Positions 1,603-21,380 of a stretch of 21,808 nucleotides of DNA are shown here, piece after piece. The stretch's first letter is position 1, and each line of letters opens with the position of its first letter. The notes under the pieces were generated by a model. The model was not told the DNA's origin. It saw only the letters and a list, made by a program, of their open reading frames with translations, and did no database searches. The translations under genes and the position numbers were made by a program. Source of the DNA: a virus (Duplodnaviria; Heunggongvirae; Uroviricota; Caudoviricetes); the IMG/VR virus record IMGVR_UViG_2740892234_000019; one strand, 5' to 3'.

Positions 1603-1735
1603 TACTGACATTTTGCATAGGCAGAACGCAATTATGCATATTGCGGTATAATCCCCTTCTTAAAACTGTAAGAATTGCTTGCTAATCCTTGCAGTTTTTG
1701 ATTATAACATTCTTATTTGTTTATTAGGATTTTTG

Positions 1736-3868
1736 ATGGAACTGTTACAGGAACACGGGGCGATACTTAAAGTTGTAATCATGCCTACTACTGGGGAACA
1801 AACCATAATCCAAGGTTTCGATACTGGCCTCCTCAACCCAGAGATATCCAACATTCTTTTTTTATTGGCCAAAACACCAAAAGAAATTAGTGAGATTTTT
1901 GTCAATGAAAATGATAACTTTCAGCCTACTCTAAGCGGGCTAAATCCTATTTTTTTAATATCTAAAGAAAATCTTGAAAAAATACCAAATATTTATCAAA
2001 CGCCATTTTGCTTAATTTTTTGTGCTAAAGAAGATTTTTCGTATGTTTGTGCTTTAAAAAAACATTTTGCTATACCACCTATAATTTGTTGCAATTCTAA
2101 ACGCGCTGATCTACCACTTAATAAGATTAATAGTATATACTCATTTGATAAGGTGCTCTTCTCTCGGTTGAAATTCATTGAGGATAAAATAAGAAAAAAT
2201 CACAGTGAAAAGAAAATATCAACGAAGTTGAAGCGAAGAGGGGCTTTATTTAATAAATCACCTTGGAGATCGACGCTTAACAATTCAACACTACCCAATG
2301 AGTTGTTAATTGAATCACTTGGCTATATGCTATCTCCACCAAAAAGAATTAAAGATGGTAGTAGCAAAAGAGAGTTTATAGAAATAATACTTCATAGCGT
2401 TGATGCATACACCGAATGTTTAAAGGAATTAGATATACCACTTCCAACGGAAGTCTTACTTTTTGCTCCGGGTATGCACTCTTTTTTATATGATAAAAAT
2501 AATGACTTTTATGAGTTAATAACGGAAAATTTATCCACAATTGAGAAAAAATTCCTTATTGATGGAGTGTTGAGGAATCCAGGCTATTCTGGAATTAGAC
2601 TTGATATAAATTCAGATAGAAAAGAACTTTTTAAAAGTCCTGCTTTCCGTTACCTCACCTCACTAAGACGCGCTGAAATGCGATTAACAACAGCTGCGAT
2701 TACTTTATTTAGCATAAATAAAAAAATCCCAGCAATAAGATTGCCAAATGCAATAAATCATTACTCCAATTATTTGAAAAATCTTGAAGATCTTGCAACT
2801 TCTTCTGGGATAAATAGTGAAGCATTCATCACTAAATCTAAAGCATTCAATACTGTTATTCGAAGAGCCCTTGGTTGCAAGTTGAGAACATATATAAGTA
2901 AAAACTATAGCGATTTGTCCTTTGTTTGTGATGTACCATTGGATTGGATTAGGTTTAATAACATACCTATAATGTTCAGTCATGAGATATCAAGAATAAA
3001 TGCTACGCCTGGTAACGTTCTTCTACAGAGCGCCTCTGCTTTTCCGCGCGTTTTAGTAAAAGCATCTGAGTTGAGAAAGGTTTTAGTTATACGTTCTTTT
3101 GAGCCTGATGATCACTTAAAGTTCATATTAGAGAACGCAATTGAGATATTTAAAAAACAGATGCCAGATCTTGATTGCGAGATTATTGATGTTAGATCGA
3201 AAGCTGAGTTTATTGATGCTCTAAATCAATATCAAGGTCATATTCTTGTTATGGATTGTCATGGAAACCATGATGGCAATGGGAGTCATGGATGGTTAAT
3301 AATAGGTGAGGATAAAGTGGACACTTGGAGTTTGAGAAAAATAGCAAGAATTCCTCCTATCGTAATTCTGAGTGCATGTTTAACATCTGCCCTAAGTGGT
3401 TCTCATGCCTCTGTTGCTAATGGCTTCGTTATAAGTGGTGCATTAAGTGTCATCGGAACATTACTGCCTGTAAATGCGATAGACTCTGCTGTTTTTGTAA
3501 GTCGGTTGATCTACCGGTTTTACGAGTTTCCTTCGACGCTATCTACAAATTTTACACATGTTAATGTAAGGCTTTTTCTTTCTGTTTTTCTTAGGATGTC
3601 CTATGCAAGCGATTTAATAAGAGGATTTTTATCTGAAGATTTGATACCGAATAATTCATGGAAGAAAGATGCAGTTGATATTAACATGTATATAAACATG
3701 CTTCACCATGATTGGTATGATTATGTAATTAACAAATTGACGATGTTAACGGGGCTCACGAAAAAAGATGTACTTGATTTTATCGATAGAAAATTATTCA
3801 TAACTGAAACTATGTGCTATAGCCAAATTGGATTTCCAGATGCAATCACAATTAGTCTTAAAGATTGA
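1736..3868 (+). CDS. Large AT-rich protein with C-terminal caspase-like (CHAT / peptidase C14 clan) domain; candidate stand-alone defence or abortive-infection effector
   Basis: 710-aa ORF from ATG 1736 (AGGA RBS 7 nt upstream; the track ORF starts at an upstream TTG 1679). Composition is visibly AT-rich compared with flanking phage genes. Caspase-fold dyad signature: GHILVMDCHGNHD, then about 38 aa later PPIVILSACLTSA. No Walker A motif; the N-terminal ~470 aa have no motif I can name. Confidence 0.7.
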   Translation: MELLQEHGAILKVVIMPTTGEQTIIQGFDTGLLNPEISNILFLLAKTPKEISEIFVNENDNFQPTLSGLNPIFLISKENLEKIPNIYQTPFCLIFCAKEDFSYVCALKKHFAIPPIICCNSKRADLPLNKINSIYSFDKVLFSRLKFIEDKIRKNHSEKKISTKLKRRGALFNKSPWRSTLNNSTLPNELLIESLGYMLSPPKRIKDGSSKREFIEIILHSVDAYTECLKELDIPLPTEVLLFAPGMHSFLYDKNNDFYELITENLSTIEKKFLIDGVLRNPGYSGIRLDINSDRKELFKSPAFRYLTSLRRAEMRLTTAAITLFSINKKIPAIRLPNAINHYSNYLKNLEDLATSSGINSEAFITKSKAFNTVIRRALGCKLRTYISKNYSDLSFVCDVPLDWIRFNNIPIMFSHEISRINATPGNVLLQSASAFPRVLVKASELRKVLVIRSFEPDDHLKFILENAIEIFKKQMPDLDCEIIDVRSKAEFIDALNQYQGHILVMDCHGNHDGNGSHGWLIIGEDKVDTWSLRKIARIPPIVILSACLTSALSGSHASVANGFVISGALSVIGTLLPVNAIDSAVFVSRLIYRFYEFPSTLSTNFTHVNVRLFLSVFLRMSYASDLIRGFLSEDLIPNNSWKKDAVDINMYINMLHHDWYDYVINKLTMLTGLTKKDVLDFIDRKLFITETMCYSQIGFPDAITISLKD

Positions 3869-4790: not shown

Positions 4791-5152
4791 TATGCTCCAG
4801 CCTCCGGTGCTTTTGGCATTACTGCCCAGTGAGTGATATTAATATTTTCAAGGTCCCCGATCTGAAATGTCCACTGCCATTCTCCGGTTTCTTTTTGTCC
4901 CCAGGTGTACCAGAGAGAACGCCAGCCAATCAGCCAGCCTTCTCCGTTAGCATCAAATAACAGAACACTTTCATTTGCTGGTGGCAGTTCAACTGATACT
5001 GGTATTACTTTGTTTTCCTGTGCTGCACATTTAGCTTCAAGCGCATCGAATTTACGCACCAGGTATTCAGCATCCGTTTCATTCACTTTCAGGTCTCGTG
5101 GTACACATCTCCCGTGAAGAAACCCTTCCATTTCGAAAACATTCATGCGCAT
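4790..5152 (-). CDS. Phage protein, DUF551-like (yfdS-like position and length)
   Basis: 120-aa ORF ending THWAVMPKAPE; overlaps the stop of the upstream HD-domain gene (ATG at 5152 or 5146). Confidence 0.55.
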   Translation of the reverse strand: MRMNVFEMEGFLHGRCVPRDLKVNETDAEYLVRKFDALEAKCAAQENKVIPVSVELPPANESVLLFDANGEGWLIGWRSLWYTWGQKETGEWQWTFQIGDLENINITHWAVMPKAPEAGA

Positions 5153-5812: not shown

Positions 5813-5822
5813 NNNNNNNNNN
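5813..5822. other. Assembly gap (N x10)
   Basis: Run of N. Right flank 5823-6123 is a ~95% identical copy of 5506-5812. Confidence 0.95.
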
Positions 5823-6123: not shown

Positions 6124-7144
6124 TCAGGCGGTGAAAGTACCAATAAAGGTTTCTACTTTGCTGTCTTTGAATTTCTCAACAAGCAGATCACGAAATTCGT
6201 TAGCCATTTCTTCCTGCACCGCTTCCAGCTGAATAATGCGCAGAACCAGTACAGGACGATCGCCAGTGATAATGCTGAGGCGTAATTTAAACGGACGTTC
6301 TTTCAGACCTTCAAACGGAACGCATTTAAATTCAAATGCCACTGGCATAATGTCTTTGGTCTTCGCTTCGACAGATTCCATCAGGGAGCGTTTGCCGCTG
6401 AAGTCATTATCTTCAAAATCAGCGGTCTGGTTTGCTTCAATCGTGATTTTACGGATTGCCGCAGCCGCTTTTGTTGCCTGAATGGCGCCACCATTAGCAT
6501 CAAAGCCCACAAGGTAGTCGGCCCAGTCTTCAATCCATTCTGCCAGNNNNNNNNNNTTTCGCTTCGACAGACTCCATCAGAGAGCGTTTGCCGCTGAAGT
6601 CATTATCTTCAAAATCAGCGGTCTGGTTCGCTTCAATCGTGATTTTACGGACCGCCGCAGCCGCTTTTGTTGCCTGAATGGTGTCACCATTAGTATCAAA
6701 GCCCACAAGGTAGTCGGCCCAGTCTTCAATCCATTCTGCCAGTGATTTCTGGGAGTTACGCTCGCCGTTAACAGACAACAGGGCAGAGAACGGTGCTGTC
6801 TTTTTCAGTTTGAGAGTGGCGGTGTTATCTGCGTGACCTGGTTCATCAATAGTACCCAGGTTAAGCACACTGACGGCACGCATATTATCAGCATCGATAA
6901 AGCAGCGGGTGCCTTCATCTGCAAGATCTTTAGAATAACGGGTAAAGTCATCGATGCTGGCAGTGGAAAGCGCACCACGGAAACGGAAGCGATTTAAATT
7001 AAATTTTTCCAGATCATGAATGCGGAAATTCTCAGGCAATGCCACAGCATCGGCACCAATCTTACTGATAATTTCATTAACACCCTGAGCAGAAATAAGG
7101 GCATGGATTTGATTAATTGCGGTTGCGTCTAAGTTCTGAGACAT
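6124..7144 (-). CDS. Phage protein, yfdQ-like; interrupted by gap and diverged duplicate
   Basis: Track ORFs 6530-7144 and 6124-6510 are the N- and C-terminal parts of one protein. 6557-6742 duplicates 6361-6546 with mismatches. Removing the overlap gives about 274 aa. Family not recognised beyond position. Confidence 0.55.
6547..6556. other. Assembly gap (N x10)
   Basis: Run of N flanked by a ~186-bp diverged duplicate. Confidence 0.95.
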
Positions 7145-10927: not shown

Positions 10928-11020
10928 ATGAGTCTGTTAAATGACGTTCAGAAATTCATTGAAGCCCATCCGGGCTGTACTTCCGGAGACATTGCGGATG
11001 CTTTTTACGTGGGGGCTTAA
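10928..11020 (+). CDS. Small hypothetical protein (30 aa), translationally coupled
   Basis: ATG 10928 with AGGGGG RBS; its stop overlaps the Dam ATG (TAATG). Not in the track because it is shorter than 60 aa. Confidence 0.3.
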   Translation: MSLLNDVQKFIEAHPGCTSGDIADAFYVGA

Positions 11021-11631
11021 TGAGTAATAAATATTGCCAGGCGCTGGTAGAACTGCGGAACAAACCAGCCCATGAACTGAAGGAAGTGGGCGATCAGTGG
11101 CGCACGCCGGACAACATTTTCTGGGGAATTAACACCCTGTTTGGCCCGTTTGTTCTGGATCTGTTCACCGACGGTGATAACGCCAAATGTGCCGCGTATT
11201 ACACGGCGGAAGACAATGCGCTGGCGCATGACTGGTCAGAACGTCTTGCGGAGCTTAAAGGTGCTGCCTTTGGTAATCCCCCATACAGCCGCGCCAGTCA
11301 GCATGAGGGGCAATACATCACCGGCATGCGTTACATCATGAAACATGCCAGTGCCATGCGTGATAAGGGCGGGCGCTATGTTTTCCTGATCAAAGCTGCC
11401 ACCAGCGAAGTGTGGTGGCCGGAAGATGCAGATCATATTGCTTTTATTCGCGGGCGTATTGGTTTTGAAGTGCCTGCCTGGTTTATCCCGAAAGACGAGA
11501 AGCAGGTGCCGACAGGCGCTTTCTTCGCTGGTGCTATTGCTGTTTTCGATAAGACCTGGAAGGGACCGGCAATCAGCTACATCGGGCGCGATGAACTTGA
11601 GGCATGTGGTGAGGCGTTTCTGGCGCAGGTT
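11020..11631 (+). CDS. Phage DNA N6-adenine methyltransferase (Dam family, PF05869-like); 3' end lost in gap
   Basis: Motifs DQWRTPDNIF, LDLFTDGDNAKCAAYYT and catalytic NPPY (AFGNPPYSRA). The ORF runs into the N gap at 11632. Confidence 0.75.
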
Positions 11632-11641
11632 NNNNNNNNNN
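11632..11641. other. Assembly gap (N x10)
   Basis: Run of N. Confidence 0.95.
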
Positions 11642-11921
11642 GGAACTGCGGAATAAACCAGCCCATGAACTGAAGGAAGTGGGAGATCAGTGGCGCACGC
11701 CGGATAACATTTTCTGGGGAATTAACACCCTGTTTGGTCCGTTTGTTCTGGATCTGTTCACTGACGGTGATAACGCCAAATGTGCCGCGTATTACACGGC
11801 GGAAGACAACGCGCTGGCGCATGACTGGTCAGAACGCCTTGCGGAGCTTAAAGGTGCTGCCTTTGGTAATCCTCCATACAGCCGCGCCAGTCAGCATGAG
11901 GGGCAATACATCACCGGCATG
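11642..11921 (+). other. 280-bp island between two gaps: a ~97% identical copy of the Dam 5' region (11050-11329)
   Basis: Aligns by eye to the intact Dam gene with scattered substitutions; probably a small contig from a paralogous prophage. Confidence 0.5.
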
Positions 11922-11931
11922 NNNNNNNNNN
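11922..11931. other. Assembly gap (N x10)
   Basis: Run of N. Confidence 0.95.
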
Positions 11932-11958
11932 GGAAAAACTGGTCAGGGAGATGGCGGC

Positions 11959-12285
11959 ATGACGACATTAACTCAATGCCAGCAGCAGGTGCTGGATATG
12001 CTGATTTCTTATCAGAAAGAGCGTGGCTTTCCGCCAACCAATCAGGAGGTGGCAACCATGCTGGGATACCGTTCAGTGAATGCAGCGGTAGAGCATCTTC
12101 GCGCACTGGAGAAAAAAGGCGTCATCACGATAAAGCGTGGCGTGGCCCGGGGGATAACGCTTCATACCGCGGTGAAGGACGACGACAGCGAGGCGGTCGG
12201 GATTATCCACTCACTGCTTGCCGGTGAGGAAAACGCAAGGCTGCGTGCAACCCACTGGTTACATGAGAGGGGCCTGAAAGTATGA
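11959..12285 (+). CDS. LexA N-terminal DNA-binding-domain homologue lacking the peptidase domain
   Basis: 108 aa from ATG 11959 (GGGAGA RBS 8 nt upstream). Matches the LexA winged-helix pattern: LT.CQQQVLD ... G.PPT ... LGYRS.NAA.EHL.AL.KKGVI.I..G..RGI.L. No S24 Ser/Lys domain follows. Stop overlaps the rusA start. Confidence 0.65.
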   Translation: MTTLTQCQQQVLDMLISYQKERGFPPTNQEVATMLGYRSVNAAVEHLRALEKKGVITIKRGVARGITLHTAVKDDDSEAVGIIHSLLAGEENARLRATHWLHERGLKV

Positions 12286-14184: not shown

Positions 14185-15174
14185 TTGAGAGCACTGCTGA
14201 CCCCTGAAATTGCCCCGCGTATGGGGATCGTCTTGTTCAGACCAGGTTCAGAGCTGATGCCCCTGTTTATGCAGGGGCGTGTCCTGCTGGAGCCTGAGCC
14301 GGAACGTTATTCATCTTTTGCCAGTGGTGCCGTTCCGGCAGCATCACAACCGCTGGCGGATGATCCTGCCGTTCGGGCCGTGTTCCGCCATGAGGCGGTG
14401 ATCCGTCGTGCTGGTGGCGTGGAATGTCTTGAAAGCTGGTTACTTCGTGAAAAAGGCTGCCAGTGGCCTCATTCCGACTGGCACAGCGAGAACATGACCA
14501 CAATGCGACACGCTCCGGGCGCAATCCGTCTGTGCTGGCACTGCGATAACCAGCTGCGCGATCAGTTCACGGAACGGCTGGAAGCAATGGCAACGGATAA
14601 CTGTGCCCGCTGGGTGTTGTCTGTTGTGCGTCGGGATCTCGGTTTTGATGATAGTCACGTTGTGACAATGCCGGAACTGTGCTGGTGGCTGATTCGTAAT
14701 GACCTGGCGTATGCCTTACCGGAAAGTGCAGCCCGTAAGGCACTGAGATTACCGAAGCNNNNNNNNNNGTCTGTCACCCGGGAAAGTGACCTTGTGCCTT
14801 CGGTTACTGCCACCAGCATCATCCAGGATAAGGCGAAAAAGGTGCTGGCGCTGAAAGTGGATCCGGAGTCGCCGGAGTCTTTTATGTTACGCCCCAAACG
14901 TCGTCGCTGGGTTAATGAAAAGTACACGCGCTGGGTTAAGACACAGCCTTGCGCGTGTTGTGGTAAGCCAGCCGACGATCCACATCACCTGATTGGCCAT
15001 GGTCAGGGTGGAATGGGTACAAAAGCGCATGACCTTTTTGTGTTGCCTTTGTGCAGAAAACACCATGACGAACTGCATGCGGATACCGTGGCATTTGAAG
15101 AGAAGTATGGTTCCCAACTGGAGCTGATATTTCGTTTTATCGATCGCGCGCTGGCGATTGGTGTGCTGTCCTGA
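14185..15174 (+). CDS. DUF968-like protein with C-terminal HNH/zinc-finger-like motif; contains an assembly gap
   Basis: C-terminal CACCGKPADDPHHLIGHG ... LCRKHHDELH. The frame across the gap at 14759-14768 is not trustworthy; TTG start is uncertain. Confidence 0.5.
   Translation: MRALLTPEIAPRMGIVLFRPGSELMPLFMQGRVLLEPEPERYSSFASGAVPAASQPLADDPAVRAVFRHEAVIRRAGGVECLESWLLREKGCQWPHSDWHSENMTTMRHAPGAIRLCWHCDNQLRDQFTERLEAMATDNCARWVLSVVRRDLGFDDSHVVTMPELCWWLIRNDLAYALPESAARKALRLPKXXXXSVTRESDLVPSVTATSIIQDKAKKVLALKVDPESPESFMLRPKRRRWVNEKYTRWVKTQPCACCGKPADDPHHLIGHGQGGMGTKAHDLFVLPLCRKHHDELHADTVAFEEKYGSQLELIFRFIDRALAIGVLS
14759..14768. other. Assembly gap (N x10)
   Basis: Run of N; no flanking duplicate noticed. 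Confidence 0.95.
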
Positions 15175-15191
15175 TTTTGTGGAGAAAGTTG

Positions 15192-15572
15192 ATGCGTGAT
15201 ATTCAGATGGTTCTTGAACGCTGGGGGGCATGGGCGGCAAGTGGTAACACCGGGGTGGACTATTCTCCGATCGCTGCCGGATTCAAAGGACTTTTACCAT
15301 CTGCCACTAAACCACGTCCGGCCTGCTGCGATGATGACGGACTTATCATTGAAAACTGTCTTGCTCGTCTGAAGCAGAAAAAACCTGAGGAGTATTCGCT
15401 TCTCATTGCTCATTATTTGTTGCGAATATCAAAAAGACAGATAGCCAGGACGAGAAAGAAAAGCGAAAAAGCAATACGAATTGAGATGCAGATAGCCGAA
15501 GGGTTTATTGACGGATGTTTGTCTGTGCTGGGGGTAAGACTGGAGATGGACGACTGGCTGCTAAAAAAGTAA
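15192..15572 (+). CDS. Late-gene antitermination protein Q
   Basis: 126 aa from ATG 15192 (GGAGAA RBS). N-terminus MRDIQMVLERWGAWAA... and CCDDDG motif as recalled for E. coli prophage Q (QuuD-like) antiterminators. Confidence 0.8.
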   Translation: MRDIQMVLERWGAWAASGNTGVDYSPIAAGFKGLLPSATKPRPACCDDDGLIIENCLARLKQKKPEEYSLLIAHYLLRISKRQIARTRKKSEKAIRIEMQIAEGFIDGCLSVLGVRLEMDDWLLKK

Positions 15573-15640
15573 AAAATGATTAGTGCGGTCCGCAAAAAGT
15601 ATGTCAGTATGTTAAGAGTGGTTACTTCGCCACACAGCTT

Positions 15641-15666
15641 AAACCCGCCGCGAGCGGGTTTTTTTA
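15641..15666 (+). terminator. Rho-independent terminator downstream of Q (tR'-like)
   Basis: CCCGC-cgcga-GCGGG hairpin followed by a 7-T run. The late promoter and Q-utilisation site are expected in 15573-15640. Confidence 0.6.
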
Positions 15667-15787
15667 TGGCTGAAATCGGTCCAGTACAGTAAACGTGCTG
15701 GTGGCGGTGAATACCTGTCTTTCAGCTTGCCGGCTTTTTCGACAAGAGTTATTGGTGTGTCACGTTAACCGGAAAAGGGAAAAAGAC

Positions 15788-16285
15788 ATGCTGAAACAGC
15801 AGGATATGACAGAAACCGCCAGAGTGGTGTTTAATGAATTANNNNNNNNNNTCAGTTAATACTGACCCAACTATCAGCGGGGTGAACTGGAAAAGCCACA
15901 TCACCAACTGGTCAGCACATACAGTGAGCTGAACCGGCAGTATACGGAACTGCTGAGTGAATATAAAAATTTGCGGCGGTATTTCGGTGTGACGGTGCAG
16001 GTGCCGTACACCGATGTGTGGACGTATAAACCGGTGCAGTACTATCCAGGGAAACATCCGTGCGAAAAACCGGCAGAAATGCTGCGGCAGATAATCTGCG
16101 CGAGCAGTCGTCCGGGTGACCTGGTGGCGGATTTTTTCATGGGTTCTGGCTCAACCATAAAAGCAGCTATGGCGCTCGGGCGTCGTGCAACTGGTGTTGA
16201 ACTGGAGGCAGAACGTTTTGCGCAGACCGTTAAGGAGATTAGTCACATCCTTACATGCTCAATTGATGACGGGAAGGATGGATAA
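15788..16285 (+). CDS. DNA methyltransferase (beta-class N6A/N4C, PF01555-like); interior lost in gap
   Basis: C-terminal part carries HPCEKP and FFMGSGST (motif I FxGxG) and ends at 16285. An 18-codon N-terminal piece (15788-15841) precedes the gap at 15842-15851. The true gene must be longer than drawn. Confidence 0.55.
15842..15851. other. Assembly gap (N x10)
   Basis: Run of N. Confidence 0.95.
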
Positions 16286-16678
16286 AGATATGGTCAGTTC
16301 AGGCTGTGAAGCAAGTAGACAGATAAGGCTGCAATAAAAACTGACAATAGTAAAATAGCTTTTTCTCAGGTAGTCATGAATACGATCTCTTAAAGCGCCC
16401 GCTGATACCAGCGGGCAATACATACTGGCATTAATGTTAAGTTCAGGGATAATTCATCGTATTTTGTGGTACGACGCTATCAATATTAATAAACAGTATT
16501 TTTCATGTAAAATTTCTGTTTTTTTGATCTGATTCTCGTTTCCTGGGTTATGATGTTGTTGTGAACCATGCTGTTGAATGATAATGTTCGGATATAAAAT
16601 TGTTGCTGATATGTAGCGCAGTGAGCAGGTGGTATTTCTGTTGCTGAGTGTACGGATACAGTGCTTCCCTCCCTCAGC

Positions 16679-16688
16679 GGGGGGGGGG
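16679..16688. repeat. G10 homopolymer tract
   Basis: Ten consecutive G in the AT-rich region; could be a slippage-prone tract or a sequencing artefact. Confidence 0.4.
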
Positions 16689-17511
16689 CAGGTGTGCTGT
16701 GGTTTTAGAGACACCGGAAACGAGAATGATGCGGGTTTGCTGGTGCCGGGATAGAGTCGCCGGAGGTCATGACATAGAGCAAAAAAGGAATGTGCATGCA
16801 AATACACACCTCTTCGGAGAGCTCTTCTTTATATGGATGAGCCTCAAGGTCAATAGTTTATCTGTTATGTATTCATATGTTGTTACTTATATAATCCATA
16901 CGGGCATATCATCAGTACACACATACTATTATGGCATTTTATTTTTGTTTTAACTGAATTCCCGGGGCACTCTTTTTGATTTCTGATAAGGAACCAGAAT
17001 TTTCTGTTAAATGGTGTCACGTTGTAAATGGTTAATGGAAGCAGCTTATTATCCATAATCACACCTGAGTTAACAGGTGTGAGAATACTTCCGGGTGGCA
17101 GGAACACATCTGACTGATACCAGATTATCAACTTTATTTTACACCATACAGTTGAAAACGTTATTCCGCTTGATGGGCATATCACTGTGTCAATAACTAT
17201 CCATTCCATCTTTTAACCTTCTCGGTACACATTGCTTTCGATTGTTTTGCTAAAAATCATAGTCAATAAATCAGTGTAACTCATTGAAAAAGATCGTCTT
17301 CTTTGTCTTCCTGGGGTTTTCTTTTCTAATTTTGTATCACTTTGGTTCAAGTTGTTTCATTTTTTTGTAATACAAATTAGCAGGATGAGCGGGAATATAA
17401 AAAAATCGGATGTTTTTGTAATGGATATTATTTTTTTTGTAAAATAATGTATTTTTATTTAAATTTCTATCAGAAAAGAATTTATTGTTCCTTTATATGG
17501 TGGAAAAGGTC

Positions 17512-19449
17512 ATGGTATTTAAACACTACGATGTGGTCAGGGCGGCGTCGCCGTCAGATCTTGCGGAAAAGCTGACACAAAAACTGAAGGAGGGGGGGCA
17601 GCCATTTGGCAGCCCGGTGGCCATCACGCCTTATACTCTGATGCAGGCCATTGCGGCGGAAGGTGATGTCACCACACCTGTGTTGGTGAAGCCGTCGGAT
17701 GGAGAAGGCACAGTAATCAGCGCCACCAGAGACCCGGAGTATTACTTTGTTGTGGTTCTGGCGGGGCAGTCAAACAGCATGGCATATGGTGAAGGCCTTC
17801 CGCTGCCGGAGACATATGACCGTCCGGACCCGCGTATTAAGCAGCTGGCGCGCCGCAGTACGGTGACACCGGGCGGTGCAGCATGCAAATATAACGACAT
17901 CATTCCGGCGGACCATTGTCTGCATGATGTGCAGGACATGAGCCGTCTTAACCATCCGAAAGCGGACCTGTCAAAGGGGCAGTACGGAACCGTGGGGCAG
18001 GGGCTGCATATCGCCAAAAAACTGCTGCCGTTTATACCGGCGAATGCGGGCATTCTGCTGGTTCCGTGCTGTCGTGGTGGTTCAGCGTTCACCACCGGAG
18101 CCGATGGCACATACAGTGACGCGAGTGGTGCCTCGGAGAATTCAACCCGCTGGGGTGTGGACAAGCCGCTGTATAAGGACCTTATCGGTCGAACAAAAGC
18201 AGCACTGAAGAAGAATCCGAAAAATGTGCTGTTTGCCGTGGTGTGGATGCAGGGGGAATTTGATTTTGGCGGTACGCCGGTAAATCACGCCGCACAGTTT
18301 GGTGCGCTGGTTGATAAATTCCGTGCAGACCTGGCGGATATGGCAGGCCAGTGCGTCGGTGGCTCTGCTGGCGGTGTTCCCTGGATATGCGGGGACACGA
18401 CGTATTTCTGGAAGCAGAAGAACGAATCCACGTACCAGACGGTGTATGGCAGCTATAAAAACAAAACGGAAAAGAATATCCATTTCGTACCGTTCATGAC
18501 GGATGAGAACGGGGTGAATGTGCCGACGAACAAACCGGAAGAAGACCCGGACATTCCGGGTATCGGATATTACGGTTCGAAATGGCGTGACAGCTCAGCC
18601 ACCTGGACGTCACAGGACAGGGCGAGCCATTTCAGTTCATGGGCTCGCCGCGGGATTATTTCCGACCGTCTGGCAACGGCGATTTTGCGCCATGCGGGAA
18701 GAGTGGCGCTAAACGCGGGGGCATCATCGACAGTATCAGAGGTGCGCCCGTCATCGCCTTCCGGTGCAGAAGCCACAGGCGTCACAACACTGCTCTCTTA
18801 CCTTGCCAGCGAGTCAGAGGGAAGCCTGAAAGTACAGGGATGGTCAGCCAGTGGCGGCAGGGCAGAAGTGGTCAGCGATGCGGAGGGAACCGGAGGTAAG
18901 GCAGTGAAGCTGACCAAGGAAGCCGGTAAAAGCAGCTGGGTGCTGGAGTACGCCGCGGGCAACGGTGCGGCTCTGTTACAGAAAGGGGGGCAGATTCGCT
19001 GCCGCTTTAAGGTTTCGGGAGCGCTGGCTGCGAACCAGTATGTTATGGCGTTTTACTGGCCGGTATCTTCACTGCCACAGGGCGTTGCCCTGACCGGAGA
19101 CGGGGGGAATAACCTGCTGGCAGCGTTCTACATCCAGACAGATGCAAAAGACCTGAATGTGATGTACCACAATGCGAAAGTGGCGACAAACAACCTGAAA
19201 CTGGGAACCTTTGGCGCATTTGATAACGAATGGCATACGCTGGCTTTCCGCTTTGCCGGGAATAACAGCCTTCAGGTGACGCCGGTTATTGATGGTCAGG
19301 ATGGCACACCGTTCACGCTGACGCAGTCACCGGTCAGTGCCTTTGCGGCGGATAAACTGCATGTGACAGACATTACCAGAGGTGCGACTTACCCGGTACT
19401 GATAGACAGCATTGCGGTGGAAGTGAACAGCACAGACACTGCGGCATGA
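17512..19449 (+). CDS. nanS-p: Prophage sialate 9-O-acetylesterase (NanS-p type, SASA/DUF303 esterase domain plus C-terminal domain)
   Basis: GQSN esterase motif (VVVLAGQSNSMAYG). N-terminus MVFKHYDVVRAASP... and position between Q and the lysis genes match the esterase I recall from Stx/lambdoid prophages. Start ATG 17512 is preferred over the track TTG 17485. Confidence 0.75.
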   Translation: MVFKHYDVVRAASPSDLAEKLTQKLKEGGQPFGSPVAITPYTLMQAIAAEGDVTTPVLVKPSDGEGTVISATRDPEYYFVVVLAGQSNSMAYGEGLPLPETYDRPDPRIKQLARRSTVTPGGAACKYNDIIPADHCLHDVQDMSRLNHPKADLSKGQYGTVGQGLHIAKKLLPFIPANAGILLVPCCRGGSAFTTGADGTYSDASGASENSTRWGVDKPLYKDLIGRTKAALKKNPKNVLFAVVWMQGEFDFGGTPVNHAAQFGALVDKFRADLADMAGQCVGGSAGGVPWICGDTTYFWKQKNESTYQTVYGSYKNKTEKNIHFVPFMTDENGVNVPTNKPEEDPDIPGIGYYGSKWRDSSATWTSQDRASHFSSWARRGIISDRLATAILRHAGRVALNAGASSTVSEVRPSSPSGAEATGVTTLLSYLASESEGSLKVQGWSASGGRAEVVSDAEGTGGKAVKLTKEAGKSSWVLEYAAGNGAALLQKGGQIRCRFKVSGALAANQYVMAFYWPVSSLPQGVALTGDGGNNLLAAFYIQTDAKDLNVMYHNAKVATNNLKLGTFGAFDNEWHTLAFRFAGNNSLQVTPVIDGQDGTPFTLTQSPVSAFAADKLHVTDITRGATYPVLIDSIAVEVNSTDTAA

Positions 19450-20372: not shown

Positions 20373-20992
20373 ATGAGCAGGAAATTCCGCTATGGTTTAT
20401 CAGCGGTAGTTCTGGCGCTGATTGCCGCAGGTGCTTCTGCGCCTGAAATCCTCGACCAGTTTCTGGATGAAAAGGAAGGCAACCACACCACGGCATACCG
20501 TGATGGTGTGGGTATCTGGACCATCTGCCGTGGAGCCACCCGGGTGGATGGTAAGCCTGTTATTCCTGGCATGAAGCTGTCGAAGGGGAAATGCGACCAG
20601 GTTAACGCCATTGAGCGTGATAAGGCGCTGGCATGGNNNNNNNNNNGATTCCTGGCATGAAGCTGTCGAAGGAAAAATGCGACCGGGTTAACGCTATCGA
20701 ACGGGATAAGGCGCTGGCATGGGTGGCGAAGAACATCAGAGTGCCACTGACTGAACCCCAGAAAGCGGGTATTGCGTCATTCTGTCCTTACAACATTGGC
20801 CCAGGTAAGTGTTTCCCGTCGACGTTTTATAAACGAATTAATGCAGGAGATCGAAAAGGTGCCTGCGAAGCGATTCGCTGGTGGATTAAGGACGGTGGCA
20901 GAGACTGCCGTATTCGCTCAAATAACTGTTATGGTCAGGTCTCACGGCGTGACCAGGAGAGCGCGCTGGCGTGCTGGGGAATTGACAGATAA
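20373..20992 (+). CDS. SAR endolysin (T4-lysozyme-like, phage 21 R-type); interrupted by gap and diverged duplicate
   Basis: N-terminal signal-anchor-release segment GLSAVVLALIAAGASA; catalytic E-D-T region DEKEGNHTTAYRDGVGIWTICRGAT. 20647-20716 repeats the ~75 bp before the gap with mismatches, so the frame shifts across the junction. Confidence 0.8.
20637..20646. other. Assembly gap (N x10)
   Basis: Run of N flanked by a diverged duplicate. Confidence 0.95.
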
Positions 20993-21370: not shown

Positions 21371-21380
21371 NNNNNNNNNN
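21371..21380. other. Assembly gap (N x10)
   Basis: Run of N. Confidence 0.95.

Follow-up and report, generated by a model that had tools for sequence, protein, structure and literature searches.

An iraM-family gene cassette beside a probably emptied or replaced cargo position in the late region of a Stx-phage-like lambdoid prophage

The window analysed here is a stretch of 21,808 nucleotides from a virus of the class Caudoviricetes (IMG/VR record IMGVR_UViG_2740892234_000019). Within it, the 1.2-kb region 16286-17511 lies directly ahead of the sialate O-acetylesterase gene nanS-p. The G + C content of this region is 36.9% compared to 46.9% for the whole window, which bears out its preliminary description as AT-rich, and falls to 27.8% at its right end (17210-17511). 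The same description located the region between the antiterminator gene Q and nanS-p. This is correct for the nanS-p side; the left border, however, is the stop codon of a DNA methylase gene and not Q. Between Q and the methylase lie a tR'-like terminator, the beginning of a small ORF and one of the eight N10 runs of the window (Table 1). The small ORF corresponds to the start of a 198-bp coding sequence in strain STEC299 (locus L004) and is labelled as TrmB-family or hypothetical in relatives. The flanks of the gap map to positions 3628 and 4588 of L004 and to 4602 and 5588 of the related locus L001, in which the full-length methylase gene measures 1077 bp. The roughly 0.95 kb behind the gap should thus comprise what remains of the small ORF as well as the 5' two thirds of the methylase gene. 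As the link from Q to the region spans this gap (15842-15851), its contiguity is judged from the relatives.

Table 1. Features of the region 16286-17511 and its surroundings (positions refer to the window)
Feature	Position	Strand	Basis or remark
Antiterminator Q (context)	15177-15572	+	Pfam Phage_antitermQ, E=1.6e-52
tR'-like intrinsic terminator directly after Q (context)	15641-15667	+	Terminator scan: 8-bp stem and T-run; fold -16 kcal/mol
Small ORF, 5' end, truncated by assembly gap	15789-15841	+	98% identity to L004 3577-3628
N10 assembly gap	15842-15851		Stands for ~0.95 kb, judged from relatives
DNA methyltransferase (N6_N4_Mtase), 3' part	15852-16285	+	Pfam PF01555, E=2.7e-23
Non-coding spacer after methylase	16286-16541		77-85% identity with tRNA-carrying relatives (blastn)
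8-bp GC-rich hairpin GCCCGCTG-ATAC-CAGCGGGC	16397-16416		Fold -17.4 kcal/mol, z -3.5 (against shuffles)
Lineage-specific filler, 267 bp, 49% GC, non-coding	16542-16808		Cargo position of relatives
Hypervariable G homopolymer, G10 here	16679-16688		Length comparison across strains
Candidate intrinsic terminator of iraM	16781-16810	-	Hairpin 16810-16789, then CC, then U6 at 16786-16781; predicted
Degraded counterpart of STEC299 plus-strand terminator; left cassette edge	16809-16835	+	Alignment to STEC299
iraM-family anti-adaptor gene, 108 aa and stop	16883-17209	-	NF007393, PDB 8TWD, PHROG 4407, RefSeq WP_001443281.1
Upstream (promoter) part of iraM cassette	17210-17362	-	Kept in other alleles (homology block)
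AAGG ribosome-binding site	17217-17220	-	7 nt ahead of ATG; kept in three alleles
Candidate -10 hexamer TATGAT of iraM promoter	17256-17261	-	Aligned TATRMT hexamer in five alleles; predicted
Very AT-rich lineage-specific DNA ahead of nanS-p	17363-17511		A/T homopolymers differ by +/-1 among strains
nanS-p-type sialate O-acetylesterase (context)	17512-19449	+	Pfam DUF1737, SASA and DUF6645; RefSeq CDS start

Of 5426 complete E. coli genomes searched with megablast, 28 contain the entire 1.2-kb region with an identity of 98.8-99.7%; their serotypes include O111:H8, O111:NM, O121:H19, O103 and O39. Megablast of the region against the phage collection gave no match; when the collection was searched in distant mode, the iraM core alone matched. 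ARAGORN detected neither tRNA nor tmRNA genes in the whole window, in agreement with the preliminary description, which had reported no tRNA-like T-loop and proposed tRNA and Rfam scans. The latter was run permissively on 15000-18000 and yielded nothing inside the region at E<=1, with weak matches at the Q terminator alone.

The preliminary description regarded the region as low-coding and without a convincing ORF. This does not hold for 27% of it, which is occupied by the minus-strand ORF 16883-17209. The same description had considered this ORF as a potentially genuine AT-rich gene, and its length of 108 amino acids as well as the AAGG motif ahead of the ATG were both found as described. The product matches the NCBIfam model NF007393 ("anti-adapter protein IraM") over residues 1-107 with 144.2 bits (curated cutoff 121 bits), PHROG 4407 with E=3e-55, and chain A of the IraM structure PDB 8TWD in a gapless phmmer alignment of residues 1-77 (E=2e-29). 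RefSeq uses the label iraM (WP_001443281.1) for the identical locus of 28 complete E. coli genomes. The Pfam copy used gave no match for the product even at E<=10, and the database's precomputed annotation assigns PF11183 (PmrD) to all homologues. PmrD itself has phospho-PmrA and not RssB as its target, and the window protein gave no direct sequence match to it. Identity values of the protein are 55% (full length) to IraM of E. coli K-12, 60% to the protein cluster P0016, 63% to the allele of the Stx2c phage 1717 and 84% to the STEC299 allele. All sequence tests applied place the ORF product in the IraM family, and its N-terminal part is predicted to form a PmrD-like beta-barrel core, homologous to that of the solved IraM(1-78). 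Both the gene and the identical protein carry this name in RefSeq, so that the finding is already known at the annotation level.

Residues of IraM that contact RssB have been assigned to clusters I-III and P66 in the study of the IraM-RssB structure (PMC10844676). The window protein is identical in 10 of these 15 residues and conservatively changed in the other five. All of cluster I (I4, I6, W22, K26, I42) is kept, as are F18 and W30 of cluster II, I61 and Y62 of cluster III, and P66. The changes are T13S, C14S and L75I in cluster II and H63N and I64V in cluster III. Beyond the core, the C-terminal motif C-x10-C-x4-C-x4-C-P-Y-G is present (C81, C92, C97, C102, P103, Y104, G105), and this motif is invariant in 19 sequences, including the window protein, down to 44% identity.

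K-12 IraM (YcgW/ElbA; PDB 8TWD) belongs to the same family NF007393, is of nearly the same length (107 compared to 108 amino acids), and has the cluster I contacts and the four-Cys-PYG tail in common with the window protein. Both genes are AT-rich (34% GC for K-12 iraM) and both adjoin prophage DNA. However, K-12 iraM lies beside e14, whereas the window gene is embedded in the late region of a lambdoid prophage. The homology between the two stops 6 nt ahead of the ATG, and the DNA further upstream is unrelated.

The gene is part of a cassette of about 550 bp (16809-17362) that runs antisense to the late operon and diverges from nanS-p. Its edges at 16809 and around 17360 recur against three different contexts, for example those of STEC299 and of the lpxR-followed allele (L039, L041, L042). 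A homology block from 16809 to 17358/17362 is common to L004, L039 and L042, and the edge at 16809 is seen in comparison with L041 as well as with these three. Given its discrete homology edges and its presence or absence among collinear phages, the cassette appears to be a moron.

Candidate expression signals of the gene were sought on both sides. When the upstream regions of six alleles were aligned, five showed a TATRMT hexamer in the same alignment column, with no conservation of the neighbouring sequence. The hexamer reads TATGAT in the window, TATACT in three alleles and TATAAT in phage 1717. The -35 element of this candidate promoter is poor. A consensus promoter scan skipped TATGAT and proposed a site at 17422-17394 instead. 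In the abundant P0016 allele (111 amino acids), the hexamer is found 40 nt ahead of the ATG. Based on its identity values, including 62% to K-12 IraM, P0016 is probably IraL. The native-promoter construct of iraL was built with a +33 boundary after 5'RACE mapping, which implies a leader of 33 nt (PMC4045071), and the position of the P0016 hexamer would fit such a leader. At the other end, the candidate terminator forms a 9-bp hairpin on the minus strand, 72 nt past the stop codon of iraM, and adjoins the left edge of the cassette from outside. The minus-strand fold of 16775-16830 reaches -17.4 kcal/mol (z -3.2); the consensus scan did not pick this terminator.

According to the structure study, K-12 IraM is under the control of Mg2+ starvation (PMC10844676). 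For the window, no match to the direct-repeat pattern of the PhoP box was found in 17210-17511 with up to two mismatches, and the count of this pattern across the whole window was near chance (76 compared to 60 +/- 8 expected). The upstream DNA of the window gene does not align with that of K-12 iraM. Because of the missing PhoP box and the unrelated upstream DNA, the Mg2+-starvation control of K-12 cannot be transferred to the window gene, and its upstream sequence indicates a regulation that is not K-12-like.

A further parallel within the family is IraL of the uropathogenic E. coli strain CFT073, which was acquired horizontally, has its own promoter and raises the log-phase level of sigma-S (PMC4045071). 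Like the window gene, iraL is a horizontally acquired homologue of iraM, and its promoter has a short leader. The probable IraL cluster P0016 belongs to a lambdoid prophage, with Q on one side and the DUF1737/holin genes on the other, and slot and orientation resemble those in the window. The -10 hexamers of both align, although the flanks differ and the proteins share 60% identity.

Homologues of iraM were detected by tblastn in 46 phage records, nearly all of them Stx2 phages, always on the strand opposite to stx and nanS-p and always in this position. In other lambdoid prophages, the homologue is again situated between Q and the DUF1737/holin genes. In the phages 1717, 2851, Stx2a EH2201 and others, the ORF is on the minus strand directly before nanS-p/yjhS and past Q and the methylase, as in the window. 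Identity to the window is 63% at the amino acid and 67-72% at the nucleotide level and is confined to the coding region, with unrelated flanks. Some GenBank records of Stx2 phages label the homologue iraM, and a full-text literature search found no paper examining phage-borne alleles.

The DNA to the left of the cassette differs between relatives. STEC299 has a tRNA array (Thr-Arg-Gly) at this place, the Stx2a phage EH2201 and the Stx2c phage 1717 have tRNAs followed by stx2A/B, and other relatives have the lpxR lipid A deacylase gene. Three loci (L033-L035) share the frame and have tRNAs, but lack iraM; pseudogene fragments in L034 and L035 were considered as remnants of iraM, for which tblastn found no indication. 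Whereas Stx2 phages carry tRNAs and stx2AB left of the iraM-like ORF, the window carries the 267-bp filler. Between Q/methylase and nanS-p, the window has no similarity to the tRNA and stx segments of L003, L004 and L005. A word-7 blastn search also found no similarity of the filler to tRNA, stx or lpxR DNA, of which it could have been a relic.

In STEC299, the tRNA unit ends in a strong, canonical plus-strand terminator (AGCCCCUC-UCCG-GAGGGGCU followed by UUUCUUUU, -23.1 kcal/mol), which is located shortly ahead of the iraM 3' end. The counterpart in the window is degraded and reaches only -11.1 kcal/mol. Hence, the earlier proposal of a decayed or replaced cargo locus stands in a narrower form, namely as 267 bp of unrelated filler and a degraded terminator at a variable position, while the frame and the iraM cassette are retained. 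We interpret the filler (16542-16808) as a probably emptied or replaced cargo position with no function detectable from its sequence.

The copy of iraM could be a silent or decaying passenger, for example one that is permanently silenced by H-NS, with the whole region being cargo-region debris. The low G + C content of 28-37%, the poor -35 element and the loss of cargo and terminator at the adjacent position would all be in line with this view. However, the ORF is intact and its dN/dS value is 0.17 in comparison with the STEC299 allele and about 0.10 in comparison with the phage 1717 allele, for which dS is saturated. An alignment of the window with 11 genomes showed no variable position in 16822-17287, whereas the non-coding flanks contain 10 SNP columns. 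In the same 12-genome alignment nanS-p is mosaic, and the nanS-p genes next to iraM are pseudogenes in several of the genomes; this decay is compatible with debris, yet iraM itself is free of substitutions beside the decaying genes. All family-invariant residues are present, and K-12 iraM is functional despite being equally AT-rich. The family matches and the conservation pattern show that the ORF is a real gene under selection, and a silent or decaying passenger is considered unlikely.

The mechanism proposed for the window protein is modelled on IraL of CFT073 and on K-12 IraM, the latter of which bridges the 4-5-5 face of the RssB receiver, the segmented helical linker and the C-terminal domain (PMC10844676). 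By homology, the window protein would bind RssB in a lysogen across the same three surfaces. This would exclude sigma-S (RpoS) from RssB and block its hand-off to ClpXP, so that RpoS would accumulate and the general stress response would be raised. If RssB is bound and RpoS is stabilised in this manner, iraM would therefore be a lysogenic-conversion moron, which we regard as its most likely role.

[quoted passage not shown] The fold of IraM resembles that of PmrD alone, which binds phospho-PmrA (PMC10844676), and IraL and IraM differ in how they bind RssB (PMC4045071). Moreover, the five changed contacts of the window protein are those to the C-terminal domain and linker of RssB. These changes are conservative, however, and none of them affects cluster I, the one that covers the sigma-S-binding 4-5-5 face. 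RssB is also the target of both family members that have been tested to date. Retargeted or variant binding is thus regarded as very unlikely, and the K-12-like action on RssB remains the reading followed here.

The remaining parts of the region are non-coding. The spacer 16286-16541 follows the methylase in all relatives with the same frame. It is classified as non-coding because indels in relatives break both of its small ORFs, 16259-16423 on the minus and 16434-16532 on the plus strand. Of the two hairpins in the preliminary description, the one given as 16397-16418 exists, but spans 16397-16416 and is hence 2 nt shorter. It has no U-tract on the plus strand and just UUU on the minus strand. 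The hairpin is part of a block of some 55 nt (16392-16447) that does not differ among five diverged relatives and was found in 42 of 5426 E. coli genomes, at the same place in every locus examined. RNAfold confirmed the other hairpin, 17060-17081, with a stem of 9 bp (-14.5 kcal/mol, z -4.2). As it falls within codons T44-V50 of iraM and is not kept in other alleles, it was rejected as a functional element; its sequence context indicates a by-product of the codons.

The filler is confined to one prophage group, comprising 29 E. coli genomes and 16 IMG/VR contigs with the same context, and no exact 26-mer of it occurs in GTDB species representatives. Its two long ORFs (117 amino acids on the minus and 101 on the plus strand) match no NCBIfam, Pfam or PHROG entry. 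Neither has a conserved frame; both cross the G-tract, the length of which (6-12) shifts it. The G10 run at 16679-16688 had been reported correctly. Among 13 complete genomes, lengths of 6, 7, 8, 10, 11 and 12 were observed, and the IMG/VR contigs range from 6 to 11. By lineage, O111-type genomes have 8-12 and O121/O103-type genomes 6-7, although homopolymer errors of long-read assemblies may account for part of this spread. In the IMG/VR contigs L024 and L028, a 56-bp deletion (16632-16687) removes the tract with 46 further bases, and strain 2014C-3599 carries an IS600 insertion at 16824-16826, just right of the filler. A consensus scan found no promoter hexamers around the tract, which is located past the candidate iraM terminator. 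A phase-variable contingency tract is expected in a conserved ORF or in the spacer of promoter hexamers; this one lies outside both. The simplest reading of its variation is neutral slippage in dispensable DNA.

The preliminary description had also suggested a small RNA. Folding of the filler is no better than that of shuffled sequences on either strand (z -0.6 and +0.5), which together with the empty Rfam result, the 56-bp deletion, the nearby IS600 insertion and the unstable homopolymer speaks against this suggestion. Despite the lineage-dependent tract length and the invariant hairpin block, we consider it extremely improbable that 16286-16808 encodes a small RNA or a contingency element under the control of the G-tract.

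Taken together, the region is with good probability an iraM moron cassette beside an emptied or replaced cargo position in the late operon of a lambdoid, Stx-phage-like prophage. It would consist of three pieces: the methylase spacer, the inert filler and a self-contained iraM cassette on the opposite strand. The cassette would combine a weak sigma-70-type promoter with the -10 hexamer TATGAT, the AAGG site and the 108-aa gene, with the candidate terminator just past its left edge. No new biology is needed to account for a named gene next to inert filler, and the finding is an ordinary one.

The late operon of lambdoid phages is transcribed from PR' by Q-modified RNA polymerase. As iraM is antisense to this Q-dependent transcript, its expression probably takes place in the prophage state and is subject to transcriptional interference after induction. 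Binding of RssB, stabilisation of RpoS and expression of the window allele are deduced from homologous systems. A more far-reaching proposal is that the prophage IraM is an active lysogenic-conversion factor that raises sigma-S in non-O157 STEC/EPEC (O111, O121, O103) upon a signal other than Mg2+ starvation and is switched off at induction, with the iraM cassette as the fixed right border of a slot in which tRNA, stx2 and lpxR cargo is exchanged. We put this forward tentatively and regard it as possible rather than probable. If true, the antisense shut-off at induction would couple the general stress response of the host to the state of the prophage.

From the comparison, the exchangeable cargo position can be delimited exactly (edges at 16541/16542 and 16808/16809), which is of use when stx-negative relatives of Stx phages are annotated. 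In Stx-type phages, an anti-adaptor of the RpoS-stabilising family is found repeatedly next to the toxin/tRNA cargo position. If the phage alleles are active, they may help to explain differences between STEC strains in the log-phase level of RpoS and in stress tolerance.

The C-terminal tail of the IraM-family protein encoded in the AT-rich stretch carries seven residues (C81, C92, C97, C102, P103, Y104 and G105) that are invariant in 19 members of the IraM family, with identities down to 44%. The tail was left out of the crystallised IraM construct and was called flexible and less conserved (PMC10844676). At the sequence level, its pattern of four cysteines followed by P-Y-G looks like a small metal-binding knuckle. 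The coordinates of this tail and of the other features are summarised in the table.

Coordinates of the features in the window and in comparison loci
Feature	Position	Strand
Integrase gene	385-1602	
CHAT-domain gene	1679-3868	+
DUF2303 gene, apparently split	6124-7144	
Dam gene, apparently split	11020-12227	
Lysozyme gene, apparently split	20373-20992	
N10 runs	5813-5822, 6547-6556, 11632-11641, 11922-11931, 14759-14768, 15842-15851, 20637-20646, 21371-21380	
Region from Q stop codon to tR'-like terminator	15575-15667	+
Hairpin block	16392-16447	
56-bp deletion (L024, L028)	16632-16687	
IS600 insertion (strain 2014C-3599)	L006 3449-4605; window-equivalent 16824-16826	
Four-Cys and P-Y-G tail (residues 81-105)	16895-16969	-
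iraM allele and lpxR of another prophage group	L039 5001-6773	
Region upstream of K-12 iraM, with G8 run	L002 ~5070-5090	

Downstream of the methylase, a block of ~55 nt with a GCCCGCTG/CAGCGGGC hairpin was observed to be invariant among relatives, and its flanks in the same relatives are only 77-85% identical or unrelated. Among 5426 E. coli genomes, the block was detected in 42, and within the loci examined it lies directly 3' of a window-type methylase. Its plus strand is without a U-tract.

The short region between the stop codon of the antiterminator gene Q and the tR'-like terminator lies where lambdoid phages produce their short PR'-tR' transcript. A comparison with Rfam yielded weak, sub-threshold matches to isrK (18 bits) and Trp_leader (22 bits).

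Two changes were observed in relatives, an IS600 insertion in strain 2014C-3599 and a deletion shared by two IMG/VR contigs (L024 and L028), in which the G-tract is lost. The homology of these two contigs to the window begins only at 16264.

The window features eight runs of exactly 10 N, of which the one at 15842 represents ~0.95 kb. The apparently split DUF2303, Dam and lysozyme genes each span such a gap and may not be genuine pseudogenes. None of the complete E. coli genomes searched covers at least 80% of the window, which indicates a mosaic or scaffolded arrangement.

A 729-aa protein with a weak match to the CHAT (caspase-like) domain is named CHAT domain-containing protein in RefSeq entries of relatives. 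Its gene directly follows the integrase gene, a typical site of prophage-borne defence cargo.

In the alignment of six iraM-family alleles upstream of the ATG, K-12 iraM features a G8 run directly before a TAATAT hexamer, ~75 nt upstream of the start codon, which is a different location from that of the G-tract in the window. An iraM allele with 82% identity was also observed in another group of lambdoid prophages (L039-L042). In this group, the gene lpxR, coding for a lipid A 3'-O-deacylase, is located ~490 nt downstream of iraM. Since both genes lie on the same strand and antisense to the late operon, they make up an envelope/stress cargo of two genes in the slot that iraM also occupies in the window.
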